DNA of 63,051 nucleotides, filler included, from Chrysochromulina tobinii (lineage: Eukaryota): assembly GCA_001275005.1 (NCBI GenBank). It is 5 parts of 5 records of this genome, joined end to end, with 100 filler letters (N's around TTAATTAATTAA, not from the genome) between each part and the next. Parts side by side here need not be neighbours in the genome. Positions count along the whole stretch, not along the records: positions 49,905 to 57,971 come from JWZX01000939.1; 4 more parts are not named here. One strand, given 5' to 3'. The first letter of the stretch is position 1. Every line of letters begins with the position of its first letter. The translations under genes were made by a program, and so were the position numbers. A model generated the notes under the pieces. The model was not told the origin of the DNA. It did not search any database and saw only the letters and a program-made list of their open reading frames with translations. Positions 11,332 to 57,971 of the stretch are shown one piece after another.

Positions 11332-14300
11332 TCACTCCGCAATCGCCGCCAGCATGGCGCCCGCTTCTTTAGCCACCTTGGCGCCTCCCTTGGCGCGACT
11401 GGTGGACGCCGCTTTATTGGCACCCTTTTTGGCGCCCGCGCCTGCGCCTGACGCGTTCGATCGGTCGCTCTCGTTCCCGGTCGCACGTGACGTCTTGGCG
11501 ATCGCCTTCTTCTCCTTTTTGGAGAGCTCATTCGCGGGCGCCGTACTGGGCACTGTATCGGCGGCACCACGCGCTGCGGGCGGCGGCGGTGCCGGCGTCT
11601 GTGGAACGGCGCCCGGCTCGGCGCCAGCGTCTCCGTCGGCGACTTTGGCGTCCTTCCCACTGACCTTGGGAACCGACAAGTGTGGTGTGTCCTTCTTGAC
11701 GCCAAAGCGCGCCGTCGTCTTCGCGTCCTCCTTTGGCGAGGTAGGCCGCCATCCTGGTGTGCCTGGCCCCCCCGCCCCCAGGCCGCTGCCCTCCCCCCCG
11801 TCGCGGGCCGGCGAGTTCTCTTGACGTAACAGTGCTCTAGACGTACGTGGCCGATTGTACCTGTGGGGACGAGGCGCTGTGGTGAGCCCATGCATGCAAG
11901 GCGGGTCATCAGTGGCAATCAGTGGGGCCGATCGTACCCATGGGCGCTGTGGTGAGCCCATGCATGCAAGGCGGGTCATCAGTGGCAATCAGTGGGGCCG
12001 ATCGTACCCATAGGTGCCGAGCAGCTCCGAAGGCGCCGTCGTGGGCGTGGGCGGGCTGCCGGGTGTGCCGGGCGCGCGGTACGAGCGGTCGTGGATGGCG
12101 AAGCCCATCTTGGTTGCTTTCGACTTGAAGCGGGGGGAGAAGAGCAGATGCTGCAACGACTCCACCTGAACGCCGAGGGTTGGCCATCAGAGGGTCGGTC
12201 ATCAGAGGGTCATCAGAGGGTCATCAGAGGGTCATCAGATAGCCATCAGAGGGTCATCAGAGAGTCATCAGAGGGTCATCAGAGGGTCATCAGAGGGTCA
12301 TCAGAGAGTCATCAGAGGGTCATCAGAGGGTCATCAGAGGGTCATCAGAGAGCCATCAGAGGGTCATCAGAGGGTCATCAGAGGGTCATCAGAAAGCCAT
12401 CAGAGGGTCATCAGAGGGTCATCAGAGGGTCATCAGAGGGCCATCAGAGGGTCATCAGACGGTACCTGAAGCCTTGGGTTAGCATGGCATGAGTCCCAGC
12501 CTCGCCCCTTGATGGTGGGGTTCGTCTCGCCGTTCGCGCGCTTCTCCGCCAACTCCTCGGCCGCCTGTGTCGCGTAGGGGGACCATCAGTCGGCATCAGT
12601 CGCAATCAGTCGCCATCAGTCGCCATCAGTCGCCATCAGTCGCCATCAGTCGCCATCAATCGCCATCAGTTGCCATCAGTTGCCATCTGTCGCCATCACG
12701 CACCTGCGCCTTGAGGGTCTGGAAATCGGGGTACTCGTGTGTAATCATGTGTAATCAGGGGTACTCGTGTGTAATCAGGTGTCCTCGCGCACCTGCGCTT
12801 CTAGGGTCTGGAAATACGATTTCTGCACTGGGATCTTGATGGCGAACGTTCGATCAGGCTGTGGAGCATCGACGTTGAGCAATTGCAAGATGCCCACAGC
12901 TTGCTTTCTCAGCCAGTTCTCGGGGCCGTGCGAGATCGCAATCAGCGGCTCGATGGCGCCGTCCTCGGAGATTTGGCGAGCTGCGGACGGATCTCCCGCC
13001 AGGTTGCACAGCGCGGCGGCCGCATAACCCTGCGCCTCCGACTTGCTCTTGAGCAGCAAGACCAGCGGCGCGATCGCGGCGGCTTCGGTCACCGCCTTGC
13101 AGAACATCGGCTCAGAGGTCAAACCCCACAGCGCACACGAGGCATGCTTCTGCGCAGGAAAGACAATGAGCGACACTCAGAAGGCAATCAACGGCCATGA
13201 ACGACACTCAGAAGGCAAGCAGCGGCCATGAACGACACTCAGAAGGCAATCAGCGGCCATGAACGACACTCAGAAGGCACTGTGTGTCGACTATTGACCG
13301 TTCACACCTGTGCTCCCGCAGACCCATGGGTGAGAAGCTGGACGAGGTGTGGGATGCCGCCCGCTTGGACGAGGCATTGCTTCACCCCCCCCTGCTTGTC
13401 CTTGGCGAGGTCTGCAAGCAGTGCCGCGATCGAATCCTGAGCTTCGGGGCTGTCGGTGCGCCCGAGGAGCTTGACTAGAGGCGCGATGCCTGATGAGGAC
13501 AGCAATCAGAGTGAACTCAGTTCGCGCTCAGTGCCAATCAGAGGACCATCCGTCCACTCATCAGCTGATGAGGACAGCAATCAGAGTGGAGCTCAGTTCG
13601 CGATCAGTGCCAATCAGAGGACCATCCGTCCACTCATCAGCTGATGAGGACAGCAATCAGAGTGGAGCTCAGTTCGCGATCAGTGCCAATCAGAGGACCA
13701 TCCGTCCACTCGTCAGCATGCACTTATCAGCATGCACTTATCAGCATGCACTTATCAACATGCACTTATCAACATGCACTCGTCAGCATGCACTCGTCAG
13801 CATGCACTCATCAGCATGCACTCATCAGCATGCACTCATCAGCATGCACTCATCAGCATGCACTCATCAGCATGCACTCATCATGGGCGATCCCTCCGCA
13901 GGCAATCCCCGGCCTTGCCGAATCTCAAAGGGCAATCCCCGGTCTTGACGAATCTCAAAGGGCAATCCCTCCGGGCTCACCCCCGGCCTTGACGAATCTC
14001 AAAGGGCAATCCCTCCAAGCTCACCCCCTGCCTTGACGATCGCGGCCTTATTCGCGGTGGACGAGTCGAGATGGAAGAGAGCACATGCGGCATGGTTGGC
14101 CGCTGTGACACGCTCGCTCGTCAGCAGTGCGACGAGCAAACCGATGCCGTCGGCTTCGGTGATGCGCTGCTGTGCCGTCGTGGATGAGGACAAGTGCCAG
14201 AGCGCCGCGCTCGCCCTTGTCTGTGCCTCGAGAGCCATCTTCTGAGCCTCGGCGCCCACCTGCATGCATGCAATCAATCGCCATCAGGGTGCAATTAGGG

Positions 14301-17300
14301 TGCCATCTCAGGTACCATCAGAGTGCCCTCAGGGTGCAATCAGGGTGCAATCAGGGTACCATCAGGGTGGAGTCAGGGTGCAATTAGGGTACCATCAGTC
14401 ACAGCCAGAGGCCATTAGAGGCAATGAACGACGCTCACCTTATGAGCCGAGCTTGCGCCGAGCATCTTGACGAGAGGCTCGACACCGCCCGCCGCCACGA
14501 TCTGCTGCTTGCACTCCGAGCCGCGCGCGAGGTCGGAGAGCGCCGCGGCGGCGCGCACCTGTGGGGAAGGGAGGAGGTCGCGCCGTGGTGAGCACTTGCA
14601 TGCAAGGCAGAGGTTGGAGAGAGCCGCGGCGGCGCGCACCTGCATGCATGCAATTGGAGGCCACCGGACGCCATCAGGGGCACTCAGACGCAATCAGTCG
14701 CACTCAGCGCGCGCACCTGCGACTTGTTCACGTTGCGACCGTCCCCGAGGAGCTGTACGAGAGGGAGGATGGCGCCTGCCGCCGCGATGACCAGCCGATT
14801 CTCTGCGGACCGGTTCGCGAGCATGGCGAGGGTTTCTGCGGACTTCATCTGCGCCGCGGCGTTCCTCCCTTCGAGGAGGGCCACGAGGGGCTTGACGACC
14901 GCGTTGCGATTCTCTTGATTCGGCGCCGCGATGTGAAGGATCGCCCCCTGAGCATACCTGTGAAACGCGAGGTGTGAAACGCGAGGTGTGAAGCGCGAGG
15001 TGTGAAGTGCGAGGTGTGCACGCGAAAGCGCCGTAGTGAGCTCTCGCATGCAAGGCTGCTCGTTCATCAGTGGCCATCAGCGTACCCTTGCGTCGCCTCC
15101 GACTCGGCGCCCAGGAGGCCAACCAGAGGTGCGATGGCTCCAGCGCGTGCGAGGGACACCTGTGGGGACGCAGTGGGGGCGTCGTGGTGAGCACTTGCAT
15201 GCGGAGAGGTGCGATGGCTCCAGCGCGTGCACGGGCCAATCTCGGACCAATCTCGGTCCGGTGTCGGGGCAATCTCGGACAAATCTCGGTCCGATGTCGG
15301 GGCAACCTCGGGGCGATCTCGTGAGGGTGTTGGGTGAGCACCTGGTTCTCGGGGCAATCTCGGGGCAATCTGGGAGCGATCTCGTGAGCACCTGGTTCTC
15401 GGGGCAATCTCGCGAGAGGCTTTCCATCGCAGCGGCGGCGAACTCCTGCGCACGGTCCGAGTCCGCAGAGAGGTTGGCGACGAGCGCGGGCAGCGCGCCT
15501 TCGCGCGCGATCATGAGCTGGTTGTCGGGGGTCGACGAGAGGTGCCAGAGCGCTCTGGTCGCGTTCTCGCGAGGCCCGAGGGCGTTGGCGCACAGCACCT
15601 GTGGGGAAGCAGGCGCGGCGTCGTGGTGAGCACTTGCATGCTGAGAGGCCCGAGGGCGTTGGCGCACAGCGCCTCGACGAGCGGTCCTCAGAGGTCACCA
15701 GAGGTCATCAGAGGTCATCAGAGGTCGTCAGAGGTCATGAGCACCTCGACGAGCGGTGGAATCCCGCCTTCGTCCGCGACCGCAATCTTATTCATCTGGC
15801 TGCCCGCGGCCACCGCCGCAAGCGCGCCCGCCGCCCACTTTTGGGCATCGGCCTTCGCATCAAAGTCCGCACTGCGCTTGAGGGTGCCATCATCTCCCGG
15901 CAAGGCCCCCTTGGCGCCATGCTTGAGCATCGAGACGAGCGGGCGGATGGCGCCGGCTTCGACGATGGTCGTCTGCGCGTCGGAGGTAGGGCGCATGTAA
16001 TGAGAGGGCTCATCAGGGCTCATCATGGGCTCATCAGAGGCTCATCAGGGCTCATCAGGGCTCATCAGGGCTCATCAGGGCTCATCGGGGCTCATCGGGG
16101 CTCATCAGGGCTCAACAGAGGTGTCCTCAATCGCACTCACCTGCACGTCAGGCGAATCGCGCGCGAGGTCCGCCAGGGCGCGAGCGGCCATCTGCGGCGG
16201 TCCGAGGCTTGGGTCCACCTGTGGGGACGCACAAGGGAGGCGTCGTGGTGAGCACTTGCATGCTGAGAGGTGCGATGGCTTGGGTCCGATGGAGGCTAAG
16301 GTGCACCAGCCACTCCACGAGCGCCGAGATGGCGCCGGCCGCCGCGATCGAGAATTGCGTCGCCGAGTTCGCGCCCGGCAGTGCAGCGCGTGACATTTGA
16401 GCGAGGGCGAGTGCCGCGTGTCGTTTGGCGCCTCGAGAGCCGGTGCGGAGGAGCTTGACGAGAGGCAGGATGCCGCCTGATGAGGGAGGCCATCACGAGT
16501 CAATCAAGAGGTCATCAGTGGGAGGAGCTCGACGAGGGGCAAGAGCGGGCGGGCGTACCCGCAGACACGATGTCGGCCTTGTTGACGGCGGTGAAGGAGA
16601 TGACGGCCGGGATATCATCCGAAGTAATCCCCGAGAGCACCGCGGCAGCATGCTCCTGCGCGACGAGGGAAAGGTTGCCGGACCGCAGGATCTTGATGAT
16701 CGGGTCCGCACAGCCCGCGCTCGCGATGGACACCTTCGAGACGATGTCGGATGCCGAGTACAGCAGCCAGAGCGCGTACCTGGGCACAAGGAGGGAGGAG
16801 GCGCCGTGGTGAGCGTCCGCATGCAAGGCAGCTAGGTCATCAGTGCGGCAATCAACGTACTCTTGGGCTTCGAGTGACCCAGTGGCAATCAGTGGCAATC
16901 AGTGGCAATCAGTGGCAATCAGTGGCAATCAGTGGCAATCAACGTACTCTTGGGCTTCGAGTGACCCAGTGGCAATCAGTGGCAATCAGTGGCAATCAGT
17001 GGCAATCAACGTACTCTTGGGCTTCGAGTGACCCATCCTTGAGTAGGCTGACGAAACGCTCGATGCCGCCCGCCATCTGGACCGTCATCTGGGACTCGGC
17101 GCCCCCCGACTCTGCCATGCCCTTGAGGGCCGTCCACGCGCGCTGGCGTACTTTGACGTCAGGCGATCCGAGCAGTTGGATGAGTTGTGCCGTCACCTGA
17201 TGAGGGAGGCAATCATCAGGTCATCAGAGGCAATTAGAGGGCAATCAGAGGTCATCCGACGCAATCAAGAGGCAATCATCAGGTCATCCGACGCAATCAG

Positions 17301-20300
17301 AGGGCAATCAGAGGTCATCCGACGCAATCAAGAGGCAATCAGAGGTCATCCGAGTCATGTAGGCGGGTCGCACAGCGGTCAGAGATCTACAATCGTCAAA
17401 GGTGTGATCACACCTCCGAGTCCGTAGCGATACGTAATGAGACTCATCAGCCCGCGGCAGGCAATCACATGCAATTACAGAGGTCATCAGAGACTCATCA
17501 GAGACTCATCAGAGACTCATCAGAGACTCATCAGGGATGCAATCACGAGATCAGATGGATCGAGTGCCGTCAGTGTTCGTCAGTGGCAATCAGATGCACA
17601 CAGATGCAATCAGATGCAATCAGATGCGATCGAGTGTCGTCAACGTTCGTCAGTGGCAATCACCTGCACGCGATGCTGTGCCGACTTGAGCGCAATCTGC
17701 CCAAGCGCCGATGCAGCGTGCGTCTGCCCCTGTGCAGTCTGCCCATCCCGCAGCTTGCGAGCGAGCTGTGGGATGGCGCCCCACTTTGCGAGCGCCCCCC
17801 GGTTCTCCGAATCGAGAGAGAGTGAATAGAGCAGCTGGGTTACGGTGTCCTGATGAGGGAGGCAATCAAGAGGTCATCAGAGGTCATCAGGGAGTAGAGC
17901 AGTTGACGAAGTCCAGTGGCGGGAGCCCGCGCGCCGTGACGAGCACTTGCACGCGGGCGGCTCGCGGCTCGGGCGGCGCGAGTGCCCACGACGACGCGGG
18001 GTGGCGGCTCACCTGCGCCTCATTCGAGGAGGTGTCCTGACTGAGCATCGCGACAAGGTTCTGGGCGACCGTCGATTGGTTGTCAGCGTTGGCGACGACC
18101 ATAGTGGAGAGGGCTCCGGCGGCTTGCGTCTTCGCCTCGGCCGTGCCTGTCTCAACGAGCGCCACAGGTCATCAGAGGCCATCAGAGGCCATCAGAGGTC
18201 ATCAGAGGTCATCAGAGGTCATCAGAGGTCATCAGAGGCCATCAGAGGCCATCAGAGGTCATCAGAGGGCCATCAGAGGGCCATCAAAAGGCAACAGAAG
18301 TTCTCAGAAGTCGTCAGCACACCTGTCTCGAAGAGCGCCACGAGAGCAGGTACGCCACCCGCCTTAGCGATGGCCACTCCGTTGCTGTGAAGCTTGGCTA
18401 GTGAGTGCAGCGCGCCCGCCGCCGTCTCTGCGGCCAGGGCGCCCCCCTCGCTACCTGATGAGGGAGGCAATCAAGAGGTGTCCTCAGCGATCATATGAGG
18501 TCATCAGGTGTCATCAAGCTACCAGATGAGGGAGGCAATCAAGAGGTGTCCTCAGAGACATCTCAAAGGCCATCAGAGGCAACCGGAGGTGATTAGAGTC
18601 CATCAGAGGCCATCAGAGGTGATCAGAGGTCATCAGAGGTCATCAGAGGTCATCAGAGGTGATCAGAGGTCATCAGAGGCCATCAGAGGTCATCAGAGGT
18701 CCCTCGGCAGTCCCCCACCTGGCTGCAGCAGCGCGACCAGCGGAATGATGCCGCCGCATTCGAAGATGAGCTGCTGATTGGGCGCGTGATCAGCGGCGAG
18801 GCTCCAGAGAGCCCCGGCGGCATCTCGATGCACCTCGGGAGATCCTTTCGAGAGTAGGCCGATGAGCAGTGGCACGCCGCCCGCCGTGGCGATCGCCTTT
18901 TGATTGGGCCCGTTTTGGAAGGCCATCGACCAAAGCGCCGAGGCAACCTCCTTTTGGAGGAGCACCTGATGATGAGGGGGGGCAATCGAGACGTGTCATC
19001 AAGAGGTCATCAGTGGTCATCAGAGGTCATCAGTGGTCATCAGAGGCGCGTATCGGAGGCACGGAGAGGTCATCAGCCTCTTGGTACGCAACCAGTCACG
19101 CAACCAGTCACGCAAGCAGTGCTCCTCAAGGGAGATCGCACCTCGGCCTTGTCGATCCCCTTGACGCCCGATGAGAGCATGCCAACGAGCGGCCCGATGG
19201 CGCCCCACCTGCATGCAATCAGTGGCAAGCATCAGTGGCAATCATCAGTGGCAATCAGTGGCAGCATGCCAATGGCGGCCCGACGGCGCCTCACTTGGCG
19301 AGCGCCTCTTGATTGGACGTAATCAGAGGTCATCAGAGGTCGTCAGAGGTCATCAGCGGCCCGACGGCGCCTCACTTGGCGAGCGCCTCTTGATTGGATG
19401 TGTGAGCTCGCGCGAGGTTCGAGATCGCACGAGCTGCCTTCGTGCGCGTCGGCGTATCGGGCGCAGTGAGCAGCTGCACGAGCATCGTCGCGATCGTGTT
19501 CTGATTCTGCGGATTATCGAGTGCGATCGCTGCTAGCGCCCCCGCCGCCTGAAGTTGCGTCTCGGCACCGCCGACTCCCAACAAGGCAACCAGCGGCGCT
19601 AGTCCCCCCGCCTCCGCAATCGCCGCCTGGTTCTGCGCATGGTTCGCCGAGAACGACCAGAGCGCCGAGGCGGCGGCTTTCTTCGCCGACTCGGCCCCGT
19701 CGCCTTCGAACCACGAGACACGAAGGGGCGCGCTGTGGTGAGCACTTGCATGCAAGGCGGGTGCACAGAGACCATCCGCGTGATTCGCGAGTCTTGCACG
19801 TACCTTGGAGTAGCGCCACGAAGGGTGCGATGCCCCCAGCCTGGGCGGCGGCGCTCTGGTTGGCCGGGTTGTCGCGCGCGAGCTCGGAGAGGGCAGAGGC
19901 CGCGCGGGCATTCACCTGATGAGGGATGCAATCAGATGTCATCAGAGATCATCAGAGGCCATCAGCGGCCATCAGCGGTCATCAGCGGTCATCAGCGGCC
20001 ATCAGAAGCCATCAGGAGCAATCACCTCGTCTCCGTGCTCGCGTGACAGAAGGCTCACGAGGGGCGCGATGCCACCCGCCGCCGCGATCGCCGTTTGGTT
20101 GTCCTTCGAGCCCATCGCTATCGACGCCAGTGCGCCCGCCGCCTTGCCCTGCGCCTTAGTCGACTCTTCGTGCAGCAGTCTCACGAGTGGTGTGATGGCG
20201 CCGATGCCCGCAATCGCCTGATGAGGAATGCAATCCGAGGTCATCAGAGGCCATCAGAAGGTGTCGCGAGTGGCGTGATGGCGCCGATGCCCGTAATCAC

Positions 20301-20531
20301 CTGCGAGTTGGCAATCAGAGGCACTCAGAGGCACTCAGAGGCAATCACCTGCGAGTTGGCCTTGTTGTTCCGCGAGAGCGACCAGAGGGCGCCGGCGGCT
20401 TCGGAGCGGGCCTCCACCCCCCGGCTCGCTACGATGTTGACCTCACCCGCGCTGATGACGAGCTCAATCGAATTCCTTCTCTCTCGAGTGGCGGCGGCGA
20501 CGGCGGCGGCGGCGCCCTGTAGAGAATCATC
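11332..20531 (-). CDS. Armadillo (ARM) repeat protein, about 24 exons, 5' end lost at the linker
   Basis: Exon translations repeatedly give ARM consensus (AAGALWSL, NQxAIAxAGGIAPLVxLL, AGAIRPLVSML), separated by GT-AG introns full of tandem repeats. Stop at 11332. One apparent +1 homopolymer slip near 19205. Confidence 0.9.
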
Positions 20532-23561: not shown

Positions 23562-25160
<1,599 letters not shown>

Positions 25161-25518: not shown

Positions 25519-28500
25519 TCAGACCATGTCATCGTCGTCGTCGCTGCTCGGCTGCTTCTTCTTCGTTGCCTTGGCGCCTTTGCTCGTGCTGGCGGCGGCA
25601 GCACGCTGACCATTACATGCACGCTGATCCCCCTGACCATTACACGCACGCTGACCCCCCTGGGCTTTGCTGCTGCCGCCGCTGCCGCCGCTGCCGCCGC
25701 TGCCGCCGCTGCCGCCGCTGCCGCCCTGATCGACCTTGCCGCCCTTACTGCTTCCAAGCTTGCCACTAGCGCCCAAGACTGCGCTCACGGCGCCCTTATT
25801 GGAGGCGCTCACGGGCATGCTGAGCGCCGTCTTGGGCATACCAAGCGCCGTCTTGGGCATGCTAAGCGCCGTCTTGGGCGTCGCCTTGAGCGAGCGCCGC
25901 TCCGACGGCTTCGTGTCTCTGCTGCTGCAGCGCGCGTCCTCGTCCTCGTCCTCATCGTCCTCGTCGTCGTCGTCGTCGTCCTGCTGCTCACGCGTGCGTG
26001 TGGCGCCTGCCTTGCCCTTCTTCTTCACAAGACCCTTCGCAAGGCCCTTCACGGTCAGCGGAGCGCCGTCGCGAGCATCCGCGAGCGCCATCGCGAGCGC
26101 CATCGCGTTTAGACGTCCCTTACCCAACTTAGACCCCGGCCGAGTGGTGTACACGTACGTGCCCGTGCCTGCCAGGACAACGAACGCCAGCAGCACCAGC
26201 GTTGGGGCCATCGCCATGCCGCCGCCGCCGCCCGCGTCGCCCGACAGGTCGGGCGCGCCGTCCTGAGCAGAGTGATCGATGAACGGGGGAGGTGGCGCGA
26301 GATCCAGCCGGATCGGTCCAGTTGCATGCGTCGAGGAGGACCCAAATAAGGCATGCGTCGACGAGGTGCCAAATATGGATCCAGTGTCAGTTTCCATATT
26401 TGGGTCGGAGCTTGTGGGTGGCGGCGGGGAGGGCACTTCACCCTCTTCAACCTGCGGCGAGGGCGGCGGCGGGGAGCGGGAGGGCGGCGGGTGTGGCGCT
26501 GAGGGCGACCTCTGCGGCGGAGGCGTGCGCGGCGGCACAGGCGGCTGCATCGCCATCACGCTCGTGCCCGGGAGATCCGCAAGGGCCGCGAGCTTGGCTC
26601 CGTTGGTTCTCGTCCAGTCCTCGAGAAGGATGCCGCCGGTGTCCTCGGAGTCGGGGTTGAGGCAAAAGTAGAAGAGACCCATCCCTCGGCGCTTGATCTG
26701 GCCGAACGCCCAGTCTTGCCATACCTTGTCCTTGCCCGTATACTTGCCCCCCATCTCACCTATAAAGATCATCGCATGGATGGCCATCAGCATGCAATGA
26801 GGGATGCAATCAGCATGCCAATGCCTTGGCACTCATCTCTCACCGATGATGATGGGCTGGCCATCAGCATGCAATGAGGGATGCAATCAGCATGCTAATG
26901 CCTTGGCACTCATCTCTCACCGATGACGATGGGCTGGCCCGTCGCCTGCTGCACAAACGCAAAGTGCTGGTCCCACACCGCCTCCATATTCGAAGGGAAG
27001 GAGCCGTCTTGGAAGTAGGGCTGCATGAAGACGCCCGGTCCGTACGTGTGCGGCGTGTACACGAGCCGCCGCTGGTTTGAGAGCTGCACCGGCGCCACCC
27101 TGTGGGGAGTGGGCGCCGTAGTGAGCACTTGCATGCAGCGCCGCTGGTTCGAGAGCTGTACTGCCCCCCACCCTGCCTCCCCTGCCGCCCTGCCCCCCTA
27201 CTCCCCTTGCCCCCCCGCTCTCCGCGAGATTCTCACCCCACCAAACTCCCTTGGACGCGTCATCAATCATAATCAACGGCAATCACCTGGCCCCTGCGAG
27301 GTTCTCACCCCACCAAACTCCCTTGGACGCGTCATCAAGCCCCGGAGCGCCCGGCTTGTACCTGCGAGGGTGAAACGTACAACCAGACGAAATCTCACGC
27401 AATCTCACGCAATCTCACGCAATCCCACGCAATCAGATGCAATCAGTAGATGCAATCAGCTTGTACCCGACCCCCTCGACCATGATGAGCCAGCGAGGGC
27501 ACTGCGTCAACACATGGTTCCCGATGCGCTCAGCCGCCTTGTTCCAATCCGTCGCCGGGTCCTTTGCCCAGGACGACGCGTGTGGCTCGTTCTGCAGGTC
27601 GACGGCGAAGACGTTCCAGCGGGAGCAGAGAGCACGGGCGATCTTGTCCCAAGACTGCAGCACCTTGGCCTCTGGGATGGCGCTGTCGTACCTGATGAGG
27701 GAGGCCATCGGAGGCACTCAAAGCCCCATCAAAGGCGATCAGCTGCAATCAAACACAATCAATGGCGATCGATCAAAGGCAATCAAAAGCAACCAAAGGA
27801 AAACCAATGCCCTATCCAAGGCAATCGGCTGCAATCATGCGTCCGACGGGATCGCGTTGATCAAGGATCGCGTCGAGGTCCGAGCTAAGGATCGCGCTGT
27901 CCGGGGCACTGTCTACGTACCACTTGCCTCCGCCAGGCCAAGCGGTCGGGTTCAGTCAGTCAGTCAGTTTTCGTCGCGTACCACTTGCCGCCGCCAGGCC
28001 AAGCGGTCGGGTTGAGCCGATGGCACGCGAGCATGACGAGCAGGCCCTTCTGCGCGGCGCGGTCGGCGATCTCGGCAAACATCTCGAGGTACGTCATCCC
28101 AAAGAGCTGTGGGGAAAAGCGCACGTCCACCGTCTCGATCGGCCCGTCGTGCAACGCCGACTCGTGGTTGAACAGCAGCCGCAGGGCGTTGAAGCCATTC
28201 TCGGCGAGGAGGTCGATGTACCAGTCGATTGAATGCTTGTGCAAGCCGGTGGGCGCGCCCGTGCGCCCTTCGCTCCCGTACCAGTTGATGCCCTTGACGT
28301 AAAACTTCTTGCCGTTCGCCCACAGCGCTCCCTCGTGCGCCGAGAAGTCGATCGGCACGCCCGGCGCAGGCGCGGCCGAGTATCCAGCCTGTGTCGATGC
28401 GGCGTAGTCGGCCGCGCCAAAGTCGAGCACCTGGAGGCCACGGGCACCGGCAGTCGATCGCCAGTGCTCGCCGAGCATCATCTTTGTGCCGTTTCCGGCG

Positions 28501-28544
28501 GCCAGCGCCGTCGTCAGTGGCGCGACGAGCGACCACAACGTCAT
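25519..28544 (-). CDS. Glycoside hydrolase family 5 (endoglucanase-like) with signal peptide, Pro-rich linker, C-terminal TM helix and tail; about 5 exons
   Basis: GINWYGSE, FNALRL, AVDLQNEPH (acid/base Glu), VEG, YTPHTYGP, IGEMGG (nucleophile Glu), FCLNPDSEDTGG; TM segment TLVLLAFVVLAGTGTYVY. Confidence 0.9.
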
Positions 28545-36742: not shown

Positions 36743-36877
36743 GTTTTGAGCGTGAAAGCCCGTGTAGTGTGAAATTGGGAGTTTCGAATGAAATCCATGA
36801 TGTCACCATACTGGCGAGGCTGTGGTGTCCCGTGTGCACAATGCAGTACATAGAACCGTTAACTGCAGTTTTCGAAA

Positions 36878-40033: not shown

Positions 40034-40495
40034 CGCGCTCGGACGACTCTCTGTCACGGCGCTCTCGCGGGGCCACCCTGATTAGAACTGCAATTTCAAG
40101 ACCTCTGTCACGTTCACGTTCACGTTAAATTGCCATCTCGGCAAGACGCACGACCACAGGTCCCGTGGAGACACAACGTGGAGGGCGCGGTGTATTTCAG
40201 CTGACCTCTTGCCCTGCGCACATCCCGCGAGACCCCAGTCCCAGATTCCCTTGACCCTGTTCCGTGTGAGAGCAAACAAACCATGGCAACCCAGATTCCC
40301 TTCAGGAGAGTAAATTTGACTCCGCAGAGAAACGCGCCATGTATCGATGATGCCGTTGATGGCCATGTAGATTGCGTTCATTCGCCCGGACGCGTCCGCC
40401 CCCTTATTTTCGTAAACATATCATTCTACACTGTACTGCGATATGTCCTCTCCATAAGAATAAGAACGCTAACATGTCTACTCGTGAAAAGAACG

Positions 40496-40907
40496 CTATG
40501 AAGTCGAACGTGGCCCTCCGCGCGGCGTATGCGGCGGTGTCGCCGGTCGAGCTGAGTGCTTCAGGAGCGCCGAGCCGATTGGCAGGCCGTCGCGCTCAGC
40601 CAAAGAGCACTGAGCGAGCGCGTGGCCGCTCACGTAGCAGTAGGCGCACACGCGGTGGCAGTGGCGAAAAAAATGCTCACGCTCGGTCGTCGGGCACGGC
40701 AGTCCTATGTTCTCCCAAGGGCAGAGGCATTTGCCCGCGTATGGCGCGGTGGGCAGCGTCTTCGGGTGCAGCAGCAGCTTGGTACGCCCCTCGGGGTGAG
40801 TGAGCATCTGACGAAGCCGCGTCTGAGCGGCAAGCCGCGCCGCACGCTCCTCCACGCTCACAAGGGCCCATGCCTCCGCCGCGAGCATCTCGGGCGTCGG
40901 CTCGTCG

Positions 40908-40957
<50 letters not shown>

Positions 40958-43900: not shown

Positions 43901-45226
43901 GCCGCTCGCCGCCGTGCCCAGTACGGCGCCGTCGGCCGTCCGCGCCCAGTACGGCGCCTTCTTGAGCACGTCTTGGAGGTAGAGCTCTCGCGCCTGGTTC
44001 GCGGCGAGAGCCTCGACCACCGACGCGCTGCTCTCCGCCGCGGCCGCGGCCTCCACGGCCGCCTCGAGTCGAGCTTTGAGCTCGGCTGGCATGTCGCCAC
44101 CAGAGGCGCCTCCCTTGCGCGGCGACTTGGGCCGAGCGAAAGAGGGGCCACCTTTCGAACGCTTCGCGGTCTCTTTTGTCTCCTTGGGCGCGAGGATGGT
44201 GACCGTCGCGCGGATGTCGTAAAACGGCGTGGGCCGGTGCAGCCGGACCTCGCGCTTGCGCGTCACGCAAAGCCCGAGCACCGCGATATGCCCCATGCCG
44301 TACGTGAGCGTGCGCACCCGCGGCAGGCTCAGTGCCTCGCGGACCGCCTGGCGCAGCGCGCGCGTGAGCAGACGGGAGAAGGCCAGGTATGTTTTGAGCT
44401 CGAGCTCGAGCCGCGCGTCTACCGCAGCCGCGCCCGTCGGGTCAGGCTTGACCAGACGGCGCAGCGAGCGCTGCAGCGCCGCGGGAGCGATGCTCGAGAA
44501 GCGCGCGCGCCACACGCGGTCGGGTGTGAAGCGCGGCAGACAACGAAGCACTTCGAAGATGATCGATTCACCCTCGAGATCGCACGAGGTCCAGAAGCAC
44601 ACCCAGCCGCGCCCGTGCGACTCACGCGCGAGGTGCTCGCGCACGCCGACGCGCTCGCTCGCGGGCTCGGCGACGCGGCGCATCTTGGCACCGAAGAGCT
44701 CGCGGAGGTCACGCTCGCGCGGCTCGCCAATCGGCGCCACGAGCTCGAGCGACTGCAGGTGGCCGCACACCGACGTGATCGCAAACGAACACGATTTGTT
44801 GCCCGCAGGCGGGAAGTGACCAAAGCAGTCGTGCACTTTGAGCAGGCCGTGGCCGCGCGTGCGCCGATTGCCCGACGATAAGGCCTCGGCGATCGCGAGC
44901 GCGACCGACGGCCGGTCGGCGATGTGCAGCACGCTCGCGTCGTCGTACGTCTCCGCGACCGAGCGGCCCCACTGCGTCGTGCCGGCGCCCGTTGGCGTGC
45001 TGCGCGACTTCGGCGAGGCGGAGCGGCCGCGCAGTTGCGGACCGGCCGCCGAACGCGCCATCGAAAAGCTCTCGCGCGCGGGCAATACCGAGCGGCCGGC
45101 ACGTGCATACGCACGCTCCTGCGCCACCGAGGGTTGTGTCGTGTCGGGTGTGATGCTGATGTCCAAGGTCTGCCCGATGCCCGATGGCATCCCCGCCCGA
45201 GGAAGAAGGTGCGAGGACGCTCGCAT
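40496..45226 (-). CDS. TOP3B: Type IA DNA topoisomerase, TOP3B-like, with degenerate TOPRIM, long low-complexity C-terminus and terminal CCHC zinc knuckle; intronless
   Basis: TSVCGHL, CDLEGESIIFEV, RARFSSI, AVDAR, AEELY..GLITYPRT, HPPI, GVGTDGS; C-terminal CAYCYVSGHALAQC. Confidence 0.85.
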
Positions 45227-45654
45227 ATGAATGAGGGTTCAGGTAGCCCAAAATTTCATGAAACATGAACTATAAGGTCAGCTCTAATCCTACGCTGTAA
45301 AAGGGAGAAGCGCAGGCGGGGGTGTCGTCATGTCAGTATGATTTAATGGACTGGGAGCGCGCTGGATCACTGACGCGACGCTGTCCTACAATTTGTATAA
45401 CATCCTCGACATCGAAGGTCGCGCCCGTCTCGACTCTCGTAGAGAATCGCCCATGCCTAACATGCCAGCAACGAAGAAGCAGGCGAGCTTGTCCTCGGGC
45501 GAAGAAAGCACGCCCTCTCGTCGGCCGGTACTGTATACTGTATGAGTATGTGCCACTTGGACTGGCATCGAGGGGATCCCCTCAAGAGGAGTGCGACCAC
45601 AGCGCTGGTTGAGAGCGTCGATTGATTCCTCGATGGCACGAGAGCAACGGCCGG

Positions 45655-49904: not shown

Positions 49905-51152
49905 GGCGACGGCTTTGGCCGAGGGCTGCTGCGTGCGGCCGGGGTGACGGGCGGCACGCTCGACCTCTCGCAGAAGCTCGGCGGCGACCCGCCGACCGTG
50001 CGGCGTGTTCTGGCGGCGATGATGAAGACCACGGCGCTGACAAGTCTTTCAGTCGCCAACAACAACATCGACGGAGAGGGGGCGCAGCAGCTGGCGACGG
50101 CAGTGCTCAACTGCTCGTCGCTCGAGGTGCTCTCGGGAGTGCCGATCAAGAAGCTGCGCGCGGGAAAGCTGACAAAGCTCGACCTGCAGGGCAAGGGTCT
50201 CGGGGCGACCGAGGGCATTGTGCTGGCCGAGCTGATTCAGCTCAGCCCGGTGCTTGAAAACCTCTCCGTCGCCAACAACAACATCGACGGGGAGGCGGCG
50301 CAGCAGCTCGCGAGAGTAGTCCTCAGGAGCGCATCTCTCGAGGTCTTCTCGGAGATCCCAATCAAGAAGCTACGCGCGGACGCGCTGACGAAGCTGGACC
50401 TGAGAGGTGTTGGGGTCTCCGGCGCCCTCGTCCTCTCTGATCTGCTCAAGTTCAGCGCGGTGTTGACCTCGGTGGACCTCCGGGTCAACGACATCGGCGA
50501 CGATGGTGCCAAGGCGATCGCGGAGGCGCTGAAGGTCAACGCGGTCTTGACCAAGCTGGATTTGCACTACAACTCCATCGGCAACGACGGTGCTAAGGCG
50601 ATCGCGGAGGCGCTGAAGGTCAACGCGGTCTTGACCGAGCTGGAGTTGGGCAGCAACTCCATAGGCGAAGACGGAGCCAAGGCGATCGCGGAGGCGCTGA
50701 AGGTCAACGCGGTCTTGACCACTCTGCACCTGGACGGGAACGAGATCGGTTCGGAGGGAGCCATCGCGATCGCGGAGGCGCTCAAGGTCAACGCGGTCTT
50801 GACCTCCCTGGGCCTGAACTCCAACGACATCGGTCCAGAGGGAGCCATCGCGATCGCGGAGGCGCTGAAGGTCAACGCGGTCTTGACCACCCTCTCCCTC
50901 TGGGAAAACAGCATCGGGGACGAGGGAGCCACCGCGATCGCTCAGGCGCTGAAGGTCAACGCGGTGGTGAAGAACCTCCACCTCCAAGGCAACAGCATCT
51001 GGGACGAGGGTGCCATCGCGATCGCCGAGGCGCTGAAGGTCAACGCGGTCCTGACCAAACTGGACATCCGGATCAACAGAATGGGAGATGCAGGGGAAAA
51101 AGCAGTGCGAGACGCGGTGAAGGACCGGAGTGGATTTGTGTTGCAGCTGTAG
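49905..51152 (+). CDS. RNI-like (NLRC3-type) LRR protein, probably 5'-partial
   Basis: Seven 28-aa repeats AVLTxLxLxxNxIGxxGAxAIAEALKVN plus a capping repeat. Confidence 0.9.
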   Translation, partial: GDGFGRGLLRAAGVTGGTLDLSQKLGGDPPTVRRVLAAMMKTTALTSLSVANNNIDGEGAQQLATAVLNCSSLEVLSGVPIKKLRAGKLTKLDLQGKGLGATEGIVLAELIQLSPVLENLSVANNNIDGEAAQQLARVVLRSASLEVFSEIPIKKLRADALTKLDLRGVGVSGALVLSDLLKFSAVLTSVDLRVNDIGDDGAKAIAEALKVNAVLTKLDLHYNSIGNDGAKAIAEALKVNAVLTELELGSNSIGEDGAKAIAEALKVNAVLTTLHLDGNEIGSEGAIAIAEALKVNAVLTSLGLNSNDIGPEGAIAIAEALKVNAVLTTLSLWENSIGDEGATAIAQALKVNAVVKNLHLQGNSIWDEGAIAIAEALKVNAVLTKLDIRINRMGDAGEKAVRDAVKDRSGFVLQL

Positions 51153-51419
51153 AAAATGATTGCGAGAGCACTGTGAACATGTGTGGATCGCTGTTTTGGG
51201 GTTTGTGAAGATATTTCCTAATTTGGCAGCTGCCTTAAAAGGCGTTTTCAATAGGGTGCTGAAAAATTTACGCAAAGCGAGCGCCCAACTCGGAAAACGC
51301 AGGAAAAGTGGAAAACCGTCGCGCAAAATGCTCGCCTTCCATTCGGGAAAACCGTCGAGGCAAAAATGCTCGCCTTCCATTCGCGTTCCAATCGCGAGCT
51401 TCCAGACATCCGCTCAGGT

Positions 51420-52000
51420 CTTCCATGCTCTGGAGCTCGTGTCAAAACGAGCTCAACGACGACGCCGGGGACGCCCTCCGAACCGCCGCCCAGCCGGGAT
51501 TCCCGATCGATCTGTGACGGCTGGCGCCCAAAGCCCCGGCACGACCGCCGCCCACGGGTGCCGGCTCATCGCCTGCGTGTGCGGACCAGCCCGCCCAACC
51601 GGTCCAACTGTCCAAGATGGCGCGCAAGCGAGAGAATTACAGCGTTAGGCTGCTCACGCGCAATCCCAAGCAGGTGCGTGCTACGCTCCGTGACGCACTG
51701 TGGACCGACTTCGTCGCGCACGCCAACGCGTGCTACAAGGACGCCTTCTTGAGTGCCTTCCCCAAGCCGGTTCTTCGCTGCGTGGGGCCCCGCACGGCGT
51801 TGCGGGCCCGCACAAATTCAGCGTCAACCTGACATGCGCGAGAGCGTATCTATATGCGACGCACGGCGAGCTGCACCTCTGGACCATGAGCAGGACTTGG
51901 TCGTGACGGTGGTTGCAGGCGCTCGCGGCGCTCGCCACGTGGGACGACGGCGTCGACGGCGCATTTATCGGTGCCCGACGACCCGGCGGACGGGGCGGCA
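51420..52000 (+). pseudogene. Degenerate gene fragments (LRR C-terminal cap-like piece followed by a frameshifted unknown ORF)
   Basis: QNELNDDAGDALRTAAQPGFPIDL* resembles an LRR-gene terminus; protein-like text continues across shifting frames. Confidence 0.35.
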
Positions 52001-52318
52001 ATGGGCCGATGCTGCACAATACCAACTACAGCCGACCACGACCTGAGCCTCACACGCGCTGCAGCCCGGTAGCGCCTGTACCCCGTTCCCGCCCGTAACG
52101 GCCTGCGCTCTCAAGTTCGTAGACAACTTATTAGCCTACCCTAAGGGAACCATTTTCTGTTGTTGGACGAGTGTATGCCGCGTGCGTGAGATGATTGCTT
52201 TTCTTAAGTACTTGAAACATCCGAATCCGCGTTCCGCGGTTGATTCTTCAGAGTGATGCGAGACAGGGGGGGACGATGTGGGTCAATTCCAGATGTGTGC
52301 CCTTCGACCATCGGGTGT

Positions 52319-53750
52319 TCACTCGTATGCGGCGAGCTCTGTGGCGGCCAAGGGCGCCGTCGCGGTGGCACTCGTGCTGGAGCTCGCTTTTGGCGCGCGA
52401 GCCGGCACCGGCTTGAGCAGCGCATAGAGCACGACGCCCGCCGTGCAGATGCAGAACGAGAGCGGCTTCTGCAAGTGCGACCACAGCGCGTCGTGCCCGT
52501 CGAAGTGCGTGCTGCCGTTGACACTCGCGCCGGTCATGCACAGGTTCGGGTCGCCACGGAAGAGTTGCGCGTCGTCGCGGGCGGAGTGGCAGAATAGGAT
52601 GTGCGACAGGAGGAAGGGGAGTGCCTGCTGCGTCCCCTTGGATACTGCCACTGGCACGGTGCTCAGCCTGCGCATCGTCATCCAAAAGGCGAGCCGTGTG
52701 GAAGCCGACGAGCAGACCGCGTCCGAAGGAAATGCCTGAGGCTATCCTGAGGCTGCCCTGTCAGATGGTCCCTACCGTCTTGTGCTAGTGTGTGCCCCCT
52801 GTGTGTGGCCCTTGTCCTGGCTTGCGGCCCCCGGAGCGTGGCACCGCGCTCCGATTTCCTAATCGGGCGCGCGTTCGCCTTTCACTTAGGGGAATTGCGA
52901 TCGCTTTCCGCGAGCGCGCTTTTCTTCCTTGGGTGTGAGTCGGGGGCTGCTCGTTTGTTGTAGCTCTCTGCGCACTCCGCGTGCGACGTCTAAGGTTACT
53001 CACTACTACTCAAGTAGTCACTCTTTCCCACGGACCGTATCTTGCGTATAGAGCAGCACGACGAGGGCGGGCGTGATCGGGAAAGGAGCGCCATACTGGG
53101 CGTGAACGGGTAGGGAGCGCCATACTGGGCGCGCCATCTTGGGCGCAATCGGGATTGGAGCACCGCGCGCCGGTCCGAGCACGAGCGCGTCCCAGCGCGG
53201 CGCCGCGTAGATCAGCGTCCAGACGCCGAAGCCGAGCACGTTCACACCGAGCACGTTCACGAGTGCCCCCGCGAACGCGCACGTGGCCTCGGTGGGCCGC
53301 CCGCCCTGCGGTGCGAGCGCGAAGAGCATCTCGTTGAGGCCTAGGACGACCGCCACGACCGCCACTCATTGGCCTCTGATGGCTTCTGATGATGGCCTCT
53401 GATTGCCTCTGATTGCTTCTGATGACCGCCACACATTGGCCGTGGGTGACGTGCGTGCGCAGGAGCAGGACAGCGATGGTGCACGCAAAGAGCGTGGCCG
53501 TAGAGTGCAAGATGACGCAGAGCTGCACACCCGACTCGTCGAGCGCCACGTAGTCGAGCGCCTGCGCGAAGCCGTTGCCGACCGACGAGAGCGGCAGAGC
53601 GCAAACCATGCTGCGCGTCCAAATGCCCAGCCTCTACGAGCGATTGGCAAGCATCCACAAGCCGCCGACGAGCATCTGCGCGACGCAGGAGGCCAAGGCG
53701 AGGAGGAAGGACTCCGCGGCCGGGCCAGCGTGGTTCATGTTGATGACCGA
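52319..53750 (-). pseudogene. Disrupted DMT/EamA-like multi-pass transporter gene
   Basis: TM-rich pieces (AQALDYVAL..SGVQLCVILHST; AVSKGTQQALPFLLSHILFC; KPLSFCICTAGVVLY). Lesions: in-frame TAG at 53634-53636, a 67-nt frameshifting insertion, a ~300-nt interruption at ~52730-53040 and an apparent frameshift near 52695. Confidence 0.6.
52969..53029. repeat. 61-bp dispersed repeat, copy 2
   Basis: 60/61 identical to 32108-32168. Confidence 0.9.
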
Positions 53751-54055
53751 GCGGACGGCATTTTAGGCCGACCAAATGGACTCCTAAAGTCCAGCCCCTC
53801 TTTTCTCATTGTGAATGGGGGCTCCCCCGCCGAGCGTGAGAAGCCGGCTTGTGAGAATCCACAAGCCGGGCCGACTCCCCTGTGGGGAAAACGGGGAGGA
53901 GTGCCTAAAGTCGCGCCACGAGACATCGAAACTCAACTTTGTCAGACAACTCCATGACTGCGGAAGCGTGACGCTTGCGGAATGAGGGCGTGGCGCCTAA
54001 TGCGTTGTTTTTTCACAGCAAGTCTGCCGGAAGCCCCGTCTGAGTCCCGTGAACG

Positions 54056-57000
54056 ATGCGCGCGCCCCTCATCAACAATGACGGGCCGGCCACGTTGAGC
54101 GGCCGCGATCCACACGCGTCGCACAACAACCTCGGCATCATCAACGGCTGCTACGTCCCGGTTCTGCTCAACATCCTCGGCGCGGTTCTCTTCAGCCGCG
54201 TGGGCTTTTCGGTCGGCTTCCTCGGCTGGGCGGGTTCACTCCTCCTCTTCTGCTTCTCGGAGTCGATTGCATACCTGACGATCACCTCGTTCTCGGCGCT
54301 CGTGACCAACGGGCGCATGCGCGGCGGTGGCGCCTACTATATGATCTCGCGCTCGCTCGGCCCAGCGTTCGGAGGCTCGTGCGGCCTGCTCTTCTGGCTG
54401 ACGTACTGCCTCAACGTGACGTTCAACACGGTCGCGTTCACCGAAATGTTCGTGACGACCTTCCTGCCCGAGTGGAGCGGCGGCAACGAAGGTCAGATTG
54501 ACTGCAACGTCGAAGTCGACCCAAGCGGCAACGCGTTCGCCAACACGTTCGCGATGAGCCCCGAACAACTCAAAAAGGTCGCCGTTTCGTCCTTCACGCT
54601 CTTCCTTGTGTTCCTCGTGGGCTTCAAGGGCGCGGGCGCGTTCGCGCGTGTGAACGTCGTCATCTTCAGTGGCCTCATGCTCTCGCTCGCCGTGGGCATC
54701 GGCACCATCTGGCTCTCCCGCACACCACGTGCCATTGAGAAGAAGCTGATGTTCCTGGTGACCGACGCTGATGATTGCATGCTAATGGCCCTCTGATGGC
54801 CCTCTGATTGCATGCCCATGGCCCTCTGATGGCCCTCTGATGGCCCTTCCTCTTCGCGTGCTGAGTACCCCCTACTGGCATGCAGGTGAACCTCTCCGGC
54901 GCCCTCGAGGACATCGAAGCAGAGCTCTTGCCTTCGCGCTGGGCTGACGCTCAGAAGGGCAACCTGTCTGTGGCTTTGTTCCCTTTCGCCTGGTCCGCAG
55001 ACTGTCCCGTGGCAAGCCTCGACGGTGTCGCGCTCTCATGCGGGCCCAATGGCAAGGTGAGTACCACCGAGTACCACTGATGACCGCTGATGACCGCTGA
55101 TGACCTCTGACGGCCACTGATGACGATTTCTTCTCGCGCTTTCCGAATGGGTACAGTACGGTCTGGCGGAGACAGCGTGGCCCAAGTGGGGTATCCGCTC
55201 GTCTCAGTGTGGGTGCGCCGAGTGTGACCTCTCCCACGTGTTCGGGATCATCTTCCCTGCCGTGTGTGGGCTGATGGAGGGCGCCAATCTCTCGGGTGAT
55301 CTCGCCGACCTCTGATGACCTCTGATGACCGCTGATGACCGCTGATGACCTCTGATGACCGCTGATGACCGCTGATGACCGCTGATGACCGCTGATGACC
55401 GCTGATGACCTCTGATGACCTCTGATGACCTCTGATGACCTCTGATTGGAGGGCGCCAATCTCTCAGGTGATCTCGCCGACCCGGGATTCGCCATCCCGT
55501 ACGGCACCCTCGCGGCTGTCTCGACCGCCTTCTTTTTCTACATCATGCTCATCTTTGGTCAGGTGAGTCCTCTGATTACCTCTGATTACCTCTGATTACC
55601 TCTGATTACCTCTGATTACCTCTGATTACATCATGCTCATCTTTGGTCAGGTGAGTCCGAGGACCTCTGATTACCTCTCTGATTGCGTCCGAGTGCGTCC
55701 GAGTGCGTCTGATTGCGTTTGAGTGCATAAGTTTACCACTGATTGCCGCCCCTTGAATGCGCTCATCATCTTTCGTCTGTGTGCAGGCGGGCTCGCTCGA
55801 CCGCATCGCCCTACAATTTGACATGGATGTGATGCAGGTGAGTGCAACTGATGACCACTGATGGCCACTGATGACCACTGATGACCACTGATGACCACTG
55901 ATGACCACTGATGACCACTGATGACCACTGATGACCACTGATGACCACTGATGACCACTGATGACCACTCACAATTCGACAATGGATGTGATGCAGGATG
56001 CCTGCATCAACCAATACTTCATTGTGATGGGCATCAGCACAGCCTGCCTCTCGACCTCCCTAGGATCCCTCTTTGGAGCCTCGCGCATCTTGCAAGCCAT
56101 CGCGCGCGACAACATCTACCCGTGCCTGCGCCCGTTTGCGTACGGCTCGCGCACCGGGGACGAGCCTCGGGTCGCGATCGTGCTCTGCTGGGCTGTGGCG
56201 CAGATAGGCTTGATGCTCGGCGACCTCTCAGCTGTCGCCCCTATCTTGACCAACTTCTTTCTGATCACGTATGCGTTGACGAACCTCTCGGCCTTCTTCT
56301 TGGCAATCTCCAAGGTGCCTCCCTCATGGTCACTGAGTGCCACTGATTGGCACTGATTGCGATCTCTCAGGTGCCTCACTCATCATGGCCACTGATTGCC
56401 ACTGATTGGCACTGATTACGATCTCCCAGGTGCCTCACTCATCATGGCCACTGATTGCCACTGATTGGCACTGATTACGATCTCTCAGGTGCCCAACTAC
56501 CGGCCGCACTTCAAGTACACGCACCCGCTCCTCTCCCTCCTCGGTGCCTTCCTCACTCTCGCCGCGATGGTCTATTTGAATGCGCTCTTCGCGCTGATCA
56601 CCGTCCTCTTCGTGCTCGCCCTCTTCGTCTACATCACCTTCAGCTTCAAGGTGAGTGAATCTCGGAGTGACCTCTAATTGCCCTCTAATAGCCCTCTATT
56701 GCCCTCTAATTGCCTCTGAATGCCTACCTCATCAGGAGCACTCGCGATGGGTCGATATCTCATACGCGCTCGCATACAAGGTCGCCGTGGCCGCGCTGCG
56801 CACCATGGAAGGCCAACGGCGCGATCCCAAATATTGGAGAGCTTCCCTCGCGCTGCTCCTTCCGATCGAAGGTAACCCTCACTCCCAACCCCAAACCCCA
56901 ACCCCAACCCCAACCTTAGCTTTAACCCCAACCCCAACATCATCCTTAGCCTTAACCCCAACCCCAACTTCAATCTTAGCCTGAACCCTAACTCGCGCTG

Positions 57001-57971
57001 CTCCTCCCGATCGAAGGACGCGAAGCCACGTCGCTCTTGGGCCGCCCCTGATGACCTCCCTCATTGGGTGATGGCCTCCCTCATCAGGACGCGAAGCCAC
57101 GTCGCTCTTGGGCCGCCCCTGATGACCTCCCTCATTGGGTGATGGCCTCCCTCATCAGGACGCGAAGCCACGTCGCTCTTGGGCTGCTTCGCCTCCATCG
57201 CCTCCGGTGCGCCGATCACCGTAGGGCGCGCCGTCCTCGTGCCCACGACGACGCCCTTGGGCTCTTCACCCACGTCGCCGCCCTCGCCGCCTGGCGCCGA
57301 GCTGGGCGCGAGCGGCATGGCGGCGGCGGTGCTCAACGCGCAGCAGCTGCTCGGCGCCCAACTCGGCGCCATTCGCGCGGCCCTGCCGCTCGGCGCCCCC
57401 GACGCGTATCCGCAGGTCGTCTAATGGCCCTCTAATGGCCCTCTAATGGCCCTCTAATGGCCCTCTAATTGCCCTCTAATAGCCCTCTAATTGCCCACTA
57501 ATTGCCCACTAATTGCCGCTCGGCGCCCCCGACGCGTATCCGCAGGTCGTCGTCGGCGCTTCCTTCGTAAACGCGTGCCTCAACCTGATGCTAGGCGCCG
57601 GGATGGGCGCGTTGGCGCCCGACGCCCTCGTGATCCCGCTGCCGCCCGCGCCCTCGTCCCCGACGAGCGCCGTCCCGGGCGTACCCGAGCCCGGCGTGCC
57701 TGCCGCGACCATCCGTGCGAACATGGAGATGGAGATGGTGGTGCACGAGACGATCGCCCTTGGTCGAAACTGCCTCGTCGCTGCGAATTTCGGGTCCGCG
57801 CGCGCCGCCGAGTGCTGGGGCGCCAAGTCCCACGGCCTGCAGCTGATGGCGAGGCAGGCGGCGGAGGCCCTGAGCGGCGGCGCCGGCGCCGGCGCCGGCA
57901 CCGGCGGCACCGGCGGGGGCGGCGGCGGCAGCGGCGGCAGCGGCAGCGGCAGTGGCAGCGGCGGCAGCGGC
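54056..57971 (+). CDS. Cation-chloride cotransporter (SLC12/CCC family), multi-exon, 3' end lost at the linker
   Basis: GCYVPVLLNILGAVLFSR, TNGRMRGGGAYYMISRSLGPAFGG, FPAVCGLMEGANLSGDLADP..AIPYGT, GASRILQAIARD, APILTNFFLITYA, PNYRPHFKY. Confidence 0.93.

Follow-up and report, generated by a model that had tools for sequence, protein, structure and literature searches.

Duplicated exon junctions around repeat filler mark probable intron gain and remodelling in a cotransporter gene of Chrysochromulina tobinii

An SLC12-type cation-chloride cotransporter gene of the haptophyte Chrysochromulina tobinii (GenBank assembly GCA_001275005.1) carries a footprint of intron gain and remodelling that is real, frequent and unusually legible: exon sequence next to an intron, in several cases running across the spliced junction itself, is present in two copies with repetitive filler between them. 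The gene lies in a window of 63,051 nucleotides, meaning the whole stretch of DNA that was analysed, which consists of contigs strung together with N spacers, on the piece at positions 49905-57971 (GC about 0.57-0.75 in 2-kb bins of the window). Feature coordinates are collected in Table 1, and the contigs, proteins and sequencing runs compared in the analysis are labelled L, P and X, respectively.

Introns 3 and 9 are duplicated on both sides of the junction, with the donor and acceptor at equal offsets within their respective copies. As the earlier note on this DNA had claimed, the 38-nt copies of intron 9 are identical and the 36-nt copies of intron 3 differ by a single G/A mismatch, both introns running from GT to AG, so that its formula of GT from copy 1 and AG from copy 2 is exact for these two. 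Its third case, intron 5, does end in a copy of the upstream exon end, but the true intron end is 55996 rather than 55997, and the duplication contains just the G of the donor GT. The note had also taken the G/A difference as a substitution that gave copy 2 its AG. The difference is there, whereas its direction is unsupported; the site is the silent third base of a serine codon (TCG/TCA), and as the gene uses TCG 25 times and TCA 5 times, the change may have happened in the exon copy. Copies in these three focal introns differ at 0-2 positions, and the inserts between them measure 136, 132 and 92 nt in introns 3, 5 and 9. The last A of a motif resembling CTRAY, which we take to be the branch-point consensus, lies 23, 36 and 34 nt from the intron end in the same order (median 28 across 35 motif-bearing introns). 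Intron 10, beyond the end of the piece, opens with an exact 22-nt copy of the following exon.

Removal of nine introns from the gene model leaves 819 stop-free amino acids, 72.6% identical to P0001 and 53.1% identical over 717 columns to P0003 of Prymnesium parvum, which is the closest named homolog. The gene exceeds the piece and is completed by contig L001, giving 1114 amino acids and the tenth intron at L001 14478-14649. Homologs run unbroken across the focal junctions, including the GANLSGDLADP motif, and the continuous open model bears out the earlier statement that splicing restores this motif. For intron 9, the evidence is an in-frame stop directly after the donor together with a homolog that is continuous across the junction.

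The junctions were also checked in RNA, as contigs from three runs (X12, X13 and X17) rather than raw reads. Introns 1-7 are joined by these contigs or by the transcript-like contig L003, two of the three focal introns (3 and 5) included; the joint across intron 3 comes from record 9 of X17. L003 is likely a transcript, being without introns; it joins across introns 1, 4 and 5 and omits exon 3. At L003 870-890 the donor of intron 2 is joined to the acceptor of intron 3, which drops the 139-nt exon 55157-55295 with a frameshift; the acceptor of intron 3 is thus used, and the skipping is possibly a leak at its young donor. An X12 contig continues 40 nt into intron 3 and an X17 contig 36 nt into intron 4. 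No joint across intron 9 was found in the three RNA runs, where the 38-nt identity of the copies means that contigs could not prove one. Contigs of X12 and X13 resume at 57086 within intron 8, retaining a 71-nt unit that would bring a stop into frame; the cause may be genuine mis-splicing, or a path in the graph where spliced and unspliced reads have been combined. DNA run X2 reads through introns 1 and 7 and has the 71-nt units of intron 8 at doubled depth.

Recurrence was assessed at the scale of the window, in four genes with 38 introns: the ten of SLC12 and 28 modelled by eye, 23 of them in an armadillo-repeat (ARM) gene, one in HemB and four in a gene assigned to GH5 by a PF00150 match under the curated cut-off (E 2.8e-4). 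A copy of the intron's own spliced junction, exon followed by next exon, is present in 14/38 introns versus 1/1406 mismatched pairs. Local matches scoring at least 12 between an intron and its own flanking exons occur in 20 introns, against 10 of the 1406 mismatched intron/flank pairs, and in-register junction scores of at least 15 in five introns, against none. As background, five intronless coding stretches (9,139 nt) have two repeats of at least 14 nt at 40-500 nt spacing. Junction matches exceed chance, and the process is recurrent, as had been claimed, with splicing wherever it could be tested. Seven of the 23 ARM introns carry a copy of their own spliced junction (for example 19375-19209, 18322-18147, 15744-15599 and 14716-14559), and in six of the 38 introns junction copies lie in the interior. 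Near 18510 and 15674 on the minus strand, internal junction copies of the ARM gene have a disabled site by eye (AG to TG; GT versus GC), which may reflect selection against cryptic sites. Intron density is highly uneven, with 23 introns in the ARM gene and no filler intron in the long genes at 1-8000 and 32100-45300.

Ordinary tandem duplication or slippage around existing splice sites, or assembly error at repeats, might also place such copies beside introns. Slippage does hold for part of the material, namely introns 4 and 6 along with a number of 59-93-nt repeats arranged head to tail, and the supporting assemblies are all apparently short-read. As a general account it is very improbable, and for introns 3, 9 and 10 slippage or artefact is largely refuted. 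Contigs L001 and L002, from two other assemblies, are letter-identical to the window throughout 54056-57971, although they may derive from the same strain, and the start of intron 9 recurs on 15 contigs in two alleles, which weighs against the assembly artefact considered in the earlier note. In addition, duplication across an old boundary yields exon joined to intron rather than to the next exon, and the spliced-junction copies would therefore not come from such duplication.

As the copies extend over both sides of the spliced junction, the template would have been intronless DNA, and introns 3 and 9 very probably arose from such a template. Spliced RNA offers another source: a break beside an old intron patched by mRNA or cDNA, as an abortive intron loss, would explain spliced-junction copies without intron birth, as well as one-sided intron 5, the interior copies and the sense bias described below, and a Copia-type reverse transcriptase adjoins the SLC12 gene in L001. 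We consider this quite improbable, since an RNA patch needs two events for each of the two-sided introns 3 and 9, interior copies resolve as two nested insertions in intron 8, an antisense insertion shows this anatomy although no intron is present, and intron positions differ in the related contig L004.

Across the sample, the unit event is copy, insert, copy. Twenty-five such events were identified in 19 introns, 21 with 13-43-nt copies around an insert and four as head-to-tail repeats of 69-109 nt; the shortest in-register duplications are 9-13 nt, giving a variable overall range of 9-43 nt. The earlier description of long junction duplications with repeat filler holds, the lengths being far beyond introner target duplications. 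Inserts comprise 10-mer, 11-mer and telomere-type repeats and two recurrent 3' modules, A and B. The CTRAY motif occurs 272 times in sense versus 7 in antisense within introns and 8 versus 7 in the flanks, and 28 of the 29 filler arrays lie inside modelled introns, the remaining one being antisense in a broken open reading frame (ORF).

As read from the sequence, some events appear to have founded an intron (3, 5, 9 and 10), while others appear to copy a donor (intron 4) or an acceptor (introns 6 and 8) that was already in place; the event in intron 4 reads as remodelling of an existing intron rather than birth. The internal AG|GT that this donor duplication left at 55651, like similar sites in ARM introns, could serve as a recursive splice site. 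Intron 8 holds two nested events. In the first, a 26-nt exon-end duplication (56847-56872 versus 56992-57017) flanks a degenerate hexamer repeat (56873-56991), presumably of the telomere type (TAACCC)n, a likeness judged by eye. The first base of this insert completes the GT donor, and telomerase or telomere-templated repair could be its origin. In the second, two 71-nt units (57015-57085 and 57086-57156) each copy 28 nt of acceptor plus next exon and add the 3' end of module A. The region 57015-57158 offers three candidate acceptors, with their AGs at 57016, 57087 and 57158; in two RNA contigs the sequence picks up again before the acceptor that keeps the frame.

We find it somewhat probable that these introns were created between junction duplications by templated break repair. 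The event would likely begin in sequence free of introns, with a staggered break or with a DNA end that has stalled. This end would be extended on existing intron repeats, which supply the filler; the gene's last 20-40 nt would then be copied a second time and the end rejoined 20-40 nt upstream, with the switches into and out of filler probably using short microhomologies. The insert would be kept when spliceable, the filler supplying CTRAY branch-like motifs and the splice sites coming from the duplicated AG and/or GT or from a copied intron end. The duplicated exon end would set the branch-to-acceptor spacing at 23-36 nt, within the range of other introns. Later rounds of the same event would hit donors and acceptors already present, giving longer introns with stronger 3' modules; nested intron 8 would be an example. 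The antisense case, the microhomology and the variety of duplication lengths and inserts appear to point this way. At 18 measurable junctions with periodic filler, microhomology averages 1.56 nt versus 0.70 nt simulated (p ~0.001), and an antisense array in a broken ORF is expected if insertion ignores strand and selection retains spliceable inserts; ORFs related to the broken one start directly after this insertion. Selection for AG-free duplications was dropped as a further component: among four exon-end acceptors (those of introns 3, 5 and 9 and of the seventh ARM intron), two have an additional AG between the branch motif and the acceptor, and 26-46% of random exon stretches contain no AG.

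The two modules allow a different agent. Both have fixed 3' ends, which in many introns coincide exactly with the acceptor AG, and they occur in 12 and 9 of the 38 introns, at many loci in run X2 (as loose ends) and in contigs from other samples (L017 and L019), one with its own 39-nt duplication. Such intron ends might have been moved by an enzyme acting in trans, either non-LTR (target-primed) or of the HUH type, which leaves long, variable target duplications, with the filler as later growth of the element by slippage; the introns would still be new. In the available portions of the sources, insertions of Replitron-1 follow RG and come with duplications of variable length, C. tobinii itself has a Replitron protein (PMC10288648), and a Pavlovales introner family is classed as non-LTR (PMC12130899, supplement 8). 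We nevertheless regard mobile-element machinery as unlikely. The focal inserts are minisatellite without a common end; no near-terminal inverted run of at least 6 nt was found in any of the 38 introns (0-1 nt in five focal inserts), and none of 703 intron pairs reaches 80% identity end to end. One insert is telomere-type, another was apparently built from local exon, and the accessible part of a 2025 introner survey gives zero families for C. tobinii. A hairpin at the module ends was rejected, the folds being no better than shuffles (z -0.2 to -1.0).

Templated repair, our preferred account, has to be weighed against several observations. The recurrence of modules with fixed 3' ends looks element-like, and the antisense insertion is a single example. 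Six of the 18 measured junctions lack microhomology, and the junctions behind that comparison are not independent, with a rough null. Pairs suggestive of local templating from neighbouring introns were not significant (p 0.07-0.13; 0.08-0.27). The models of 28 of the 38 introns are by-eye open frames without RNA support; over the ARM gene, four runs gave repeat-sized pieces alone, with no exon cover and no joints. Finally, neither an intronless allele nor an orthologous structure at introns 3, 5 and 9 was found among the relatives compared. The earlier reading stands in its recurrence, splicing and length, having overlooked the donor and acceptor duplications of introns 4, 6 and 8 and the 3' modules; its suggestion of templated break repair fits the microhomology excess, while the modules keep a mobile-element driver in play.

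Relatives bear on the age of these introns. Contig L004 (73% identity, exon 1), which ends before the focal introns, has one intron absent from the SLC12 gene here and none at introns 1 and 2; as all three covered positions differ, intron positions appear to turn over. Allele sampling is shallow. All four ORFs of the exon-9 cluster, on those 15 contigs, stop inside intron 9. Protein P0066, which differs at 27 of some 308 aligned positions, reads into intron 10 and shows its duplication too; intron 10 is thus not private to the isolate. The earlier term "recent" thus agrees with the 0-2 differences between focal copies and is tempered by intron 9 in a second allele and intron 10 in P0066; "intron-generating" agrees with the spliced-junction copies and lacks an intronless counterpart.

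A scan of metagenomes gave 15 loci, of which three belong to this organism, one to an intron-bearing relative, two to copies of a decayed fragment and nine to distant sequences. Scans of viral contigs gave 0, 1 and 0 matches, and prokaryote genomes gave three, one being an algal-type contig. Contig 436 of genome G001 (L017), which bears filler introns and is algal in type, was binned into a bacterial genome and is contamination; no further algal-type contigs were found in G001.

To our knowledge, the source of most new introns that do not come from transposons is still unknown. For gain by break repair and by tandem duplication the known cases are few, and their repeats are so short that chance could be invoked. 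The footprints described here are long, frequent and nested, and a single genome suffices to read in what order the events took place. Repair-driven intron gain would become directly testable, in an organism for which DNA and RNA runs are public (17 holders) and metagenomes contain related alleles, and how a new intron obtains its branch point and spacing at birth would be shown. More tentatively, and with the balance of our judgement slightly against it, there may be a genome-wide, transposase-free intron factory in this lineage, in which error-prone repair pastes branch-point arrays and the ends of existing introns between 10-45-nt duplications, founding at least one third of introns, ratcheting splice sites and staying invisible to introner screens since its products do not align end to end. 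The footprints themselves would warn that introner screens overlook a class of intron gain.

Table 1. Coordinates of the SLC12 gene, its introns and their parts, and other features of the window
Feature	Position	Strand	Description	Evidence
SLC12-type cation-chloride cotransporter gene	54056..57971	+	exons 1-10	open frame, homology, PF00324
Intron 1	54758..54885	+	filler, without long junction copy	joined in 3/3 RNA runs and L003
Intron 2	55057..55156	+	filler, without long junction copy	joined in 3/3 RNA runs
Intron 3	55296..55467	+	172 nt; duplication across spliced junction on both sides (21|15 nt)	GT...AG; joined in 1/3 RNA runs
Intron 3, duplication copy 1	55275..55310	+	supplies GT; its final 4 nt prolong the filler period	
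Intron 3, insert	55311..55446	+	10-nt CTGATGAC-type minisatellite, ~14 units, each with branch-point-like motif	TRF
Intron 3, duplication copy 2	55447..55482	+	supplies AG; last branch-like A 23 nt from intron end	
Intron 4	55563..55786	+	224 nt; existing donor + exon end apparently duplicated, 55539-55570 to 55627-55658, 32 nt exact, 56 nt filler between	joined in L003
Intron 5	55838..55996	+	159 nt; 3' end is 26-nt copy of upstream exon end	55813-55838 vs 55971-55997, 1 mismatch + 1 indel; joined in L003
Intron 6	56315..56488	+	174 nt; three head-to-tail 59-nt units, each ending in acceptor-like AG|GT; diverged junction copy	joined in X13, X17
Intron 7	56651..56735	+	filler + module-A 3' end, without long junction copy	joined in X13, X17
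Intron 8	56872..57158	+	287 nt; two nested events	acceptor use ambiguous in RNA contigs
Intron 9	57416..57545	+	130 nt; exact 38-nt duplication across junction (32|6 nt)	GT...AG; stop after donor; homolog
Intron 9, duplication copy 1	57384..57421	+	supplies GT	
Intron 9, insert	57422..57513	+	11-nt CTAAT-type minisatellite	
Intron 9, duplication copy 2	57514..57551	+	supplies AG; preceding 32 nt without other AG	
Antisense filler insertion	53357..53441	-	18-nt duplication (1 mismatch, spacing 67), reverse-complement filler	in decaying minus-strand ORF; related ORFs start directly after it
Armadillo-repeat (ARM) gene	11332..20531	-	23 modelled introns	1553 aa to first stop
HemB (ALAD) sole intron	23880..24284	-	filler-rich, without long junction copy	by-eye model
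GH5-type glycoside hydrolase gene	25519..28544	-	4 modelled introns; 37- and 43-nt exon-end copies	760 aa open

Upstream of the SLC12 gene, a membrane-protein-like ORF on the minus strand (53040-53740) has a stop, the antisense filler insertion, a long terminal repeat (LTR) and no Pfam match, and is likely a pseudogene because relatives show frameshift variants. The LTR is a solo-LTR-like stretch of about 310 nt (52719-53030) inside this decaying frame. In L001, a Copia-type element with integrase core and RVT_2 matches (1-8975) ends at the same point, and the window and L001 diverge upstream of 52719. The Copia pol frame is broken by an AT-rich, ATGCAT-rich insertion at L001 6961-8133 with inverted ends of about 40 nt by eye. 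An 80/163-nt satellite at 30603-31083 is unrelated to the filler.

Comparison with published systems relies on the portions of the sources that were available. The pattern is not described in those portions of the C. tobin genome paper, a Phaeocystales paper, the 2025 introner paper and a review, and our literature search, outside which lay most subscription papers and some supplements, found no paper reporting, for a haptophyte, long duplications of the junction around minisatellite filler. Introners resemble the present introns in taking splice sites from a duplicated target, in sequence common to introns of unrelated genes and in haptophyte hosts. Haptophyte introners are known with 2-5-nt duplications; family 5 of Chrysochromulina sp. 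has a 4-bp target-site duplication (TSD) and no terminal inverted repeat (TIR) (bioRxiv 2022.06.06.494994), Polarella class 14 draws both splice sites from a 4-nt AGGH TSD (bioRxiv 2020.10.14.339549), and Emiliania fam24 is listed with "10bp terminal direct repeats", five copies and mechanism unknown (PMC12130899, supplement 8). Described introners have fixed TSDs of 2-8 nt and families that align end to end, whereas duplications here vary in length, and end-to-end likeness, TIRs and a short TSD of fixed length were all lacking in the window sample. Replitron-1 of Chlamydomonas likewise inserts directly after RG with a variable duplication that includes RG, as in introns 5 and 8; it is not reported to make introns in the available part of that paper (PMC10288648), and the likeness is limited to insertion after AG and the variable duplication.

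The tandem-duplication model of Rogers for AG|GT (PMC3443670) shares GT from copy 1, AG from copy 2 and unchanged coding with introns 3 and 9, and partly with intron 5. In that model the intron is duplicated exon sequence, whereas here the copies are too short and 92-136 nt of foreign filler lie between them. The earlier description of this route as rarely observed overstates its rarity, as the accessible review table gives 188 gains, with many imprecise cases among them (PMC3443670). Across 213 introns of all classes surveyed by hand, repeats span 4-30 bp, mean 11.4 (PMC11782384). Also close are the neointrons attributed to break repair in Daphnia pulex (4-12 bp repeats, 33 cases, gains proven by polymorphism; PMC4202315) and those of Drosophila (8-18 bp repeats, 7/307 introns; PMC2809761), both with inserts of unknown origin. 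The Daphnia gains are polymorphic, while no presence/absence polymorphism was found in the shallow allele sample here. Repeats in our sample reach 9-43 nt, three to four times the length of those in Daphnia, they mark about one third of modelled introns, and the inserts are recurrent intronic repeats. In common with those neointrons, an insert lies between direct repeats of the adjacent exon end and secondary events occur in young introns, and break repair with tandem or partly tandem duplications and templated filler is described for plants and animals in the available parts of PMC7407515 and PMC8355091.

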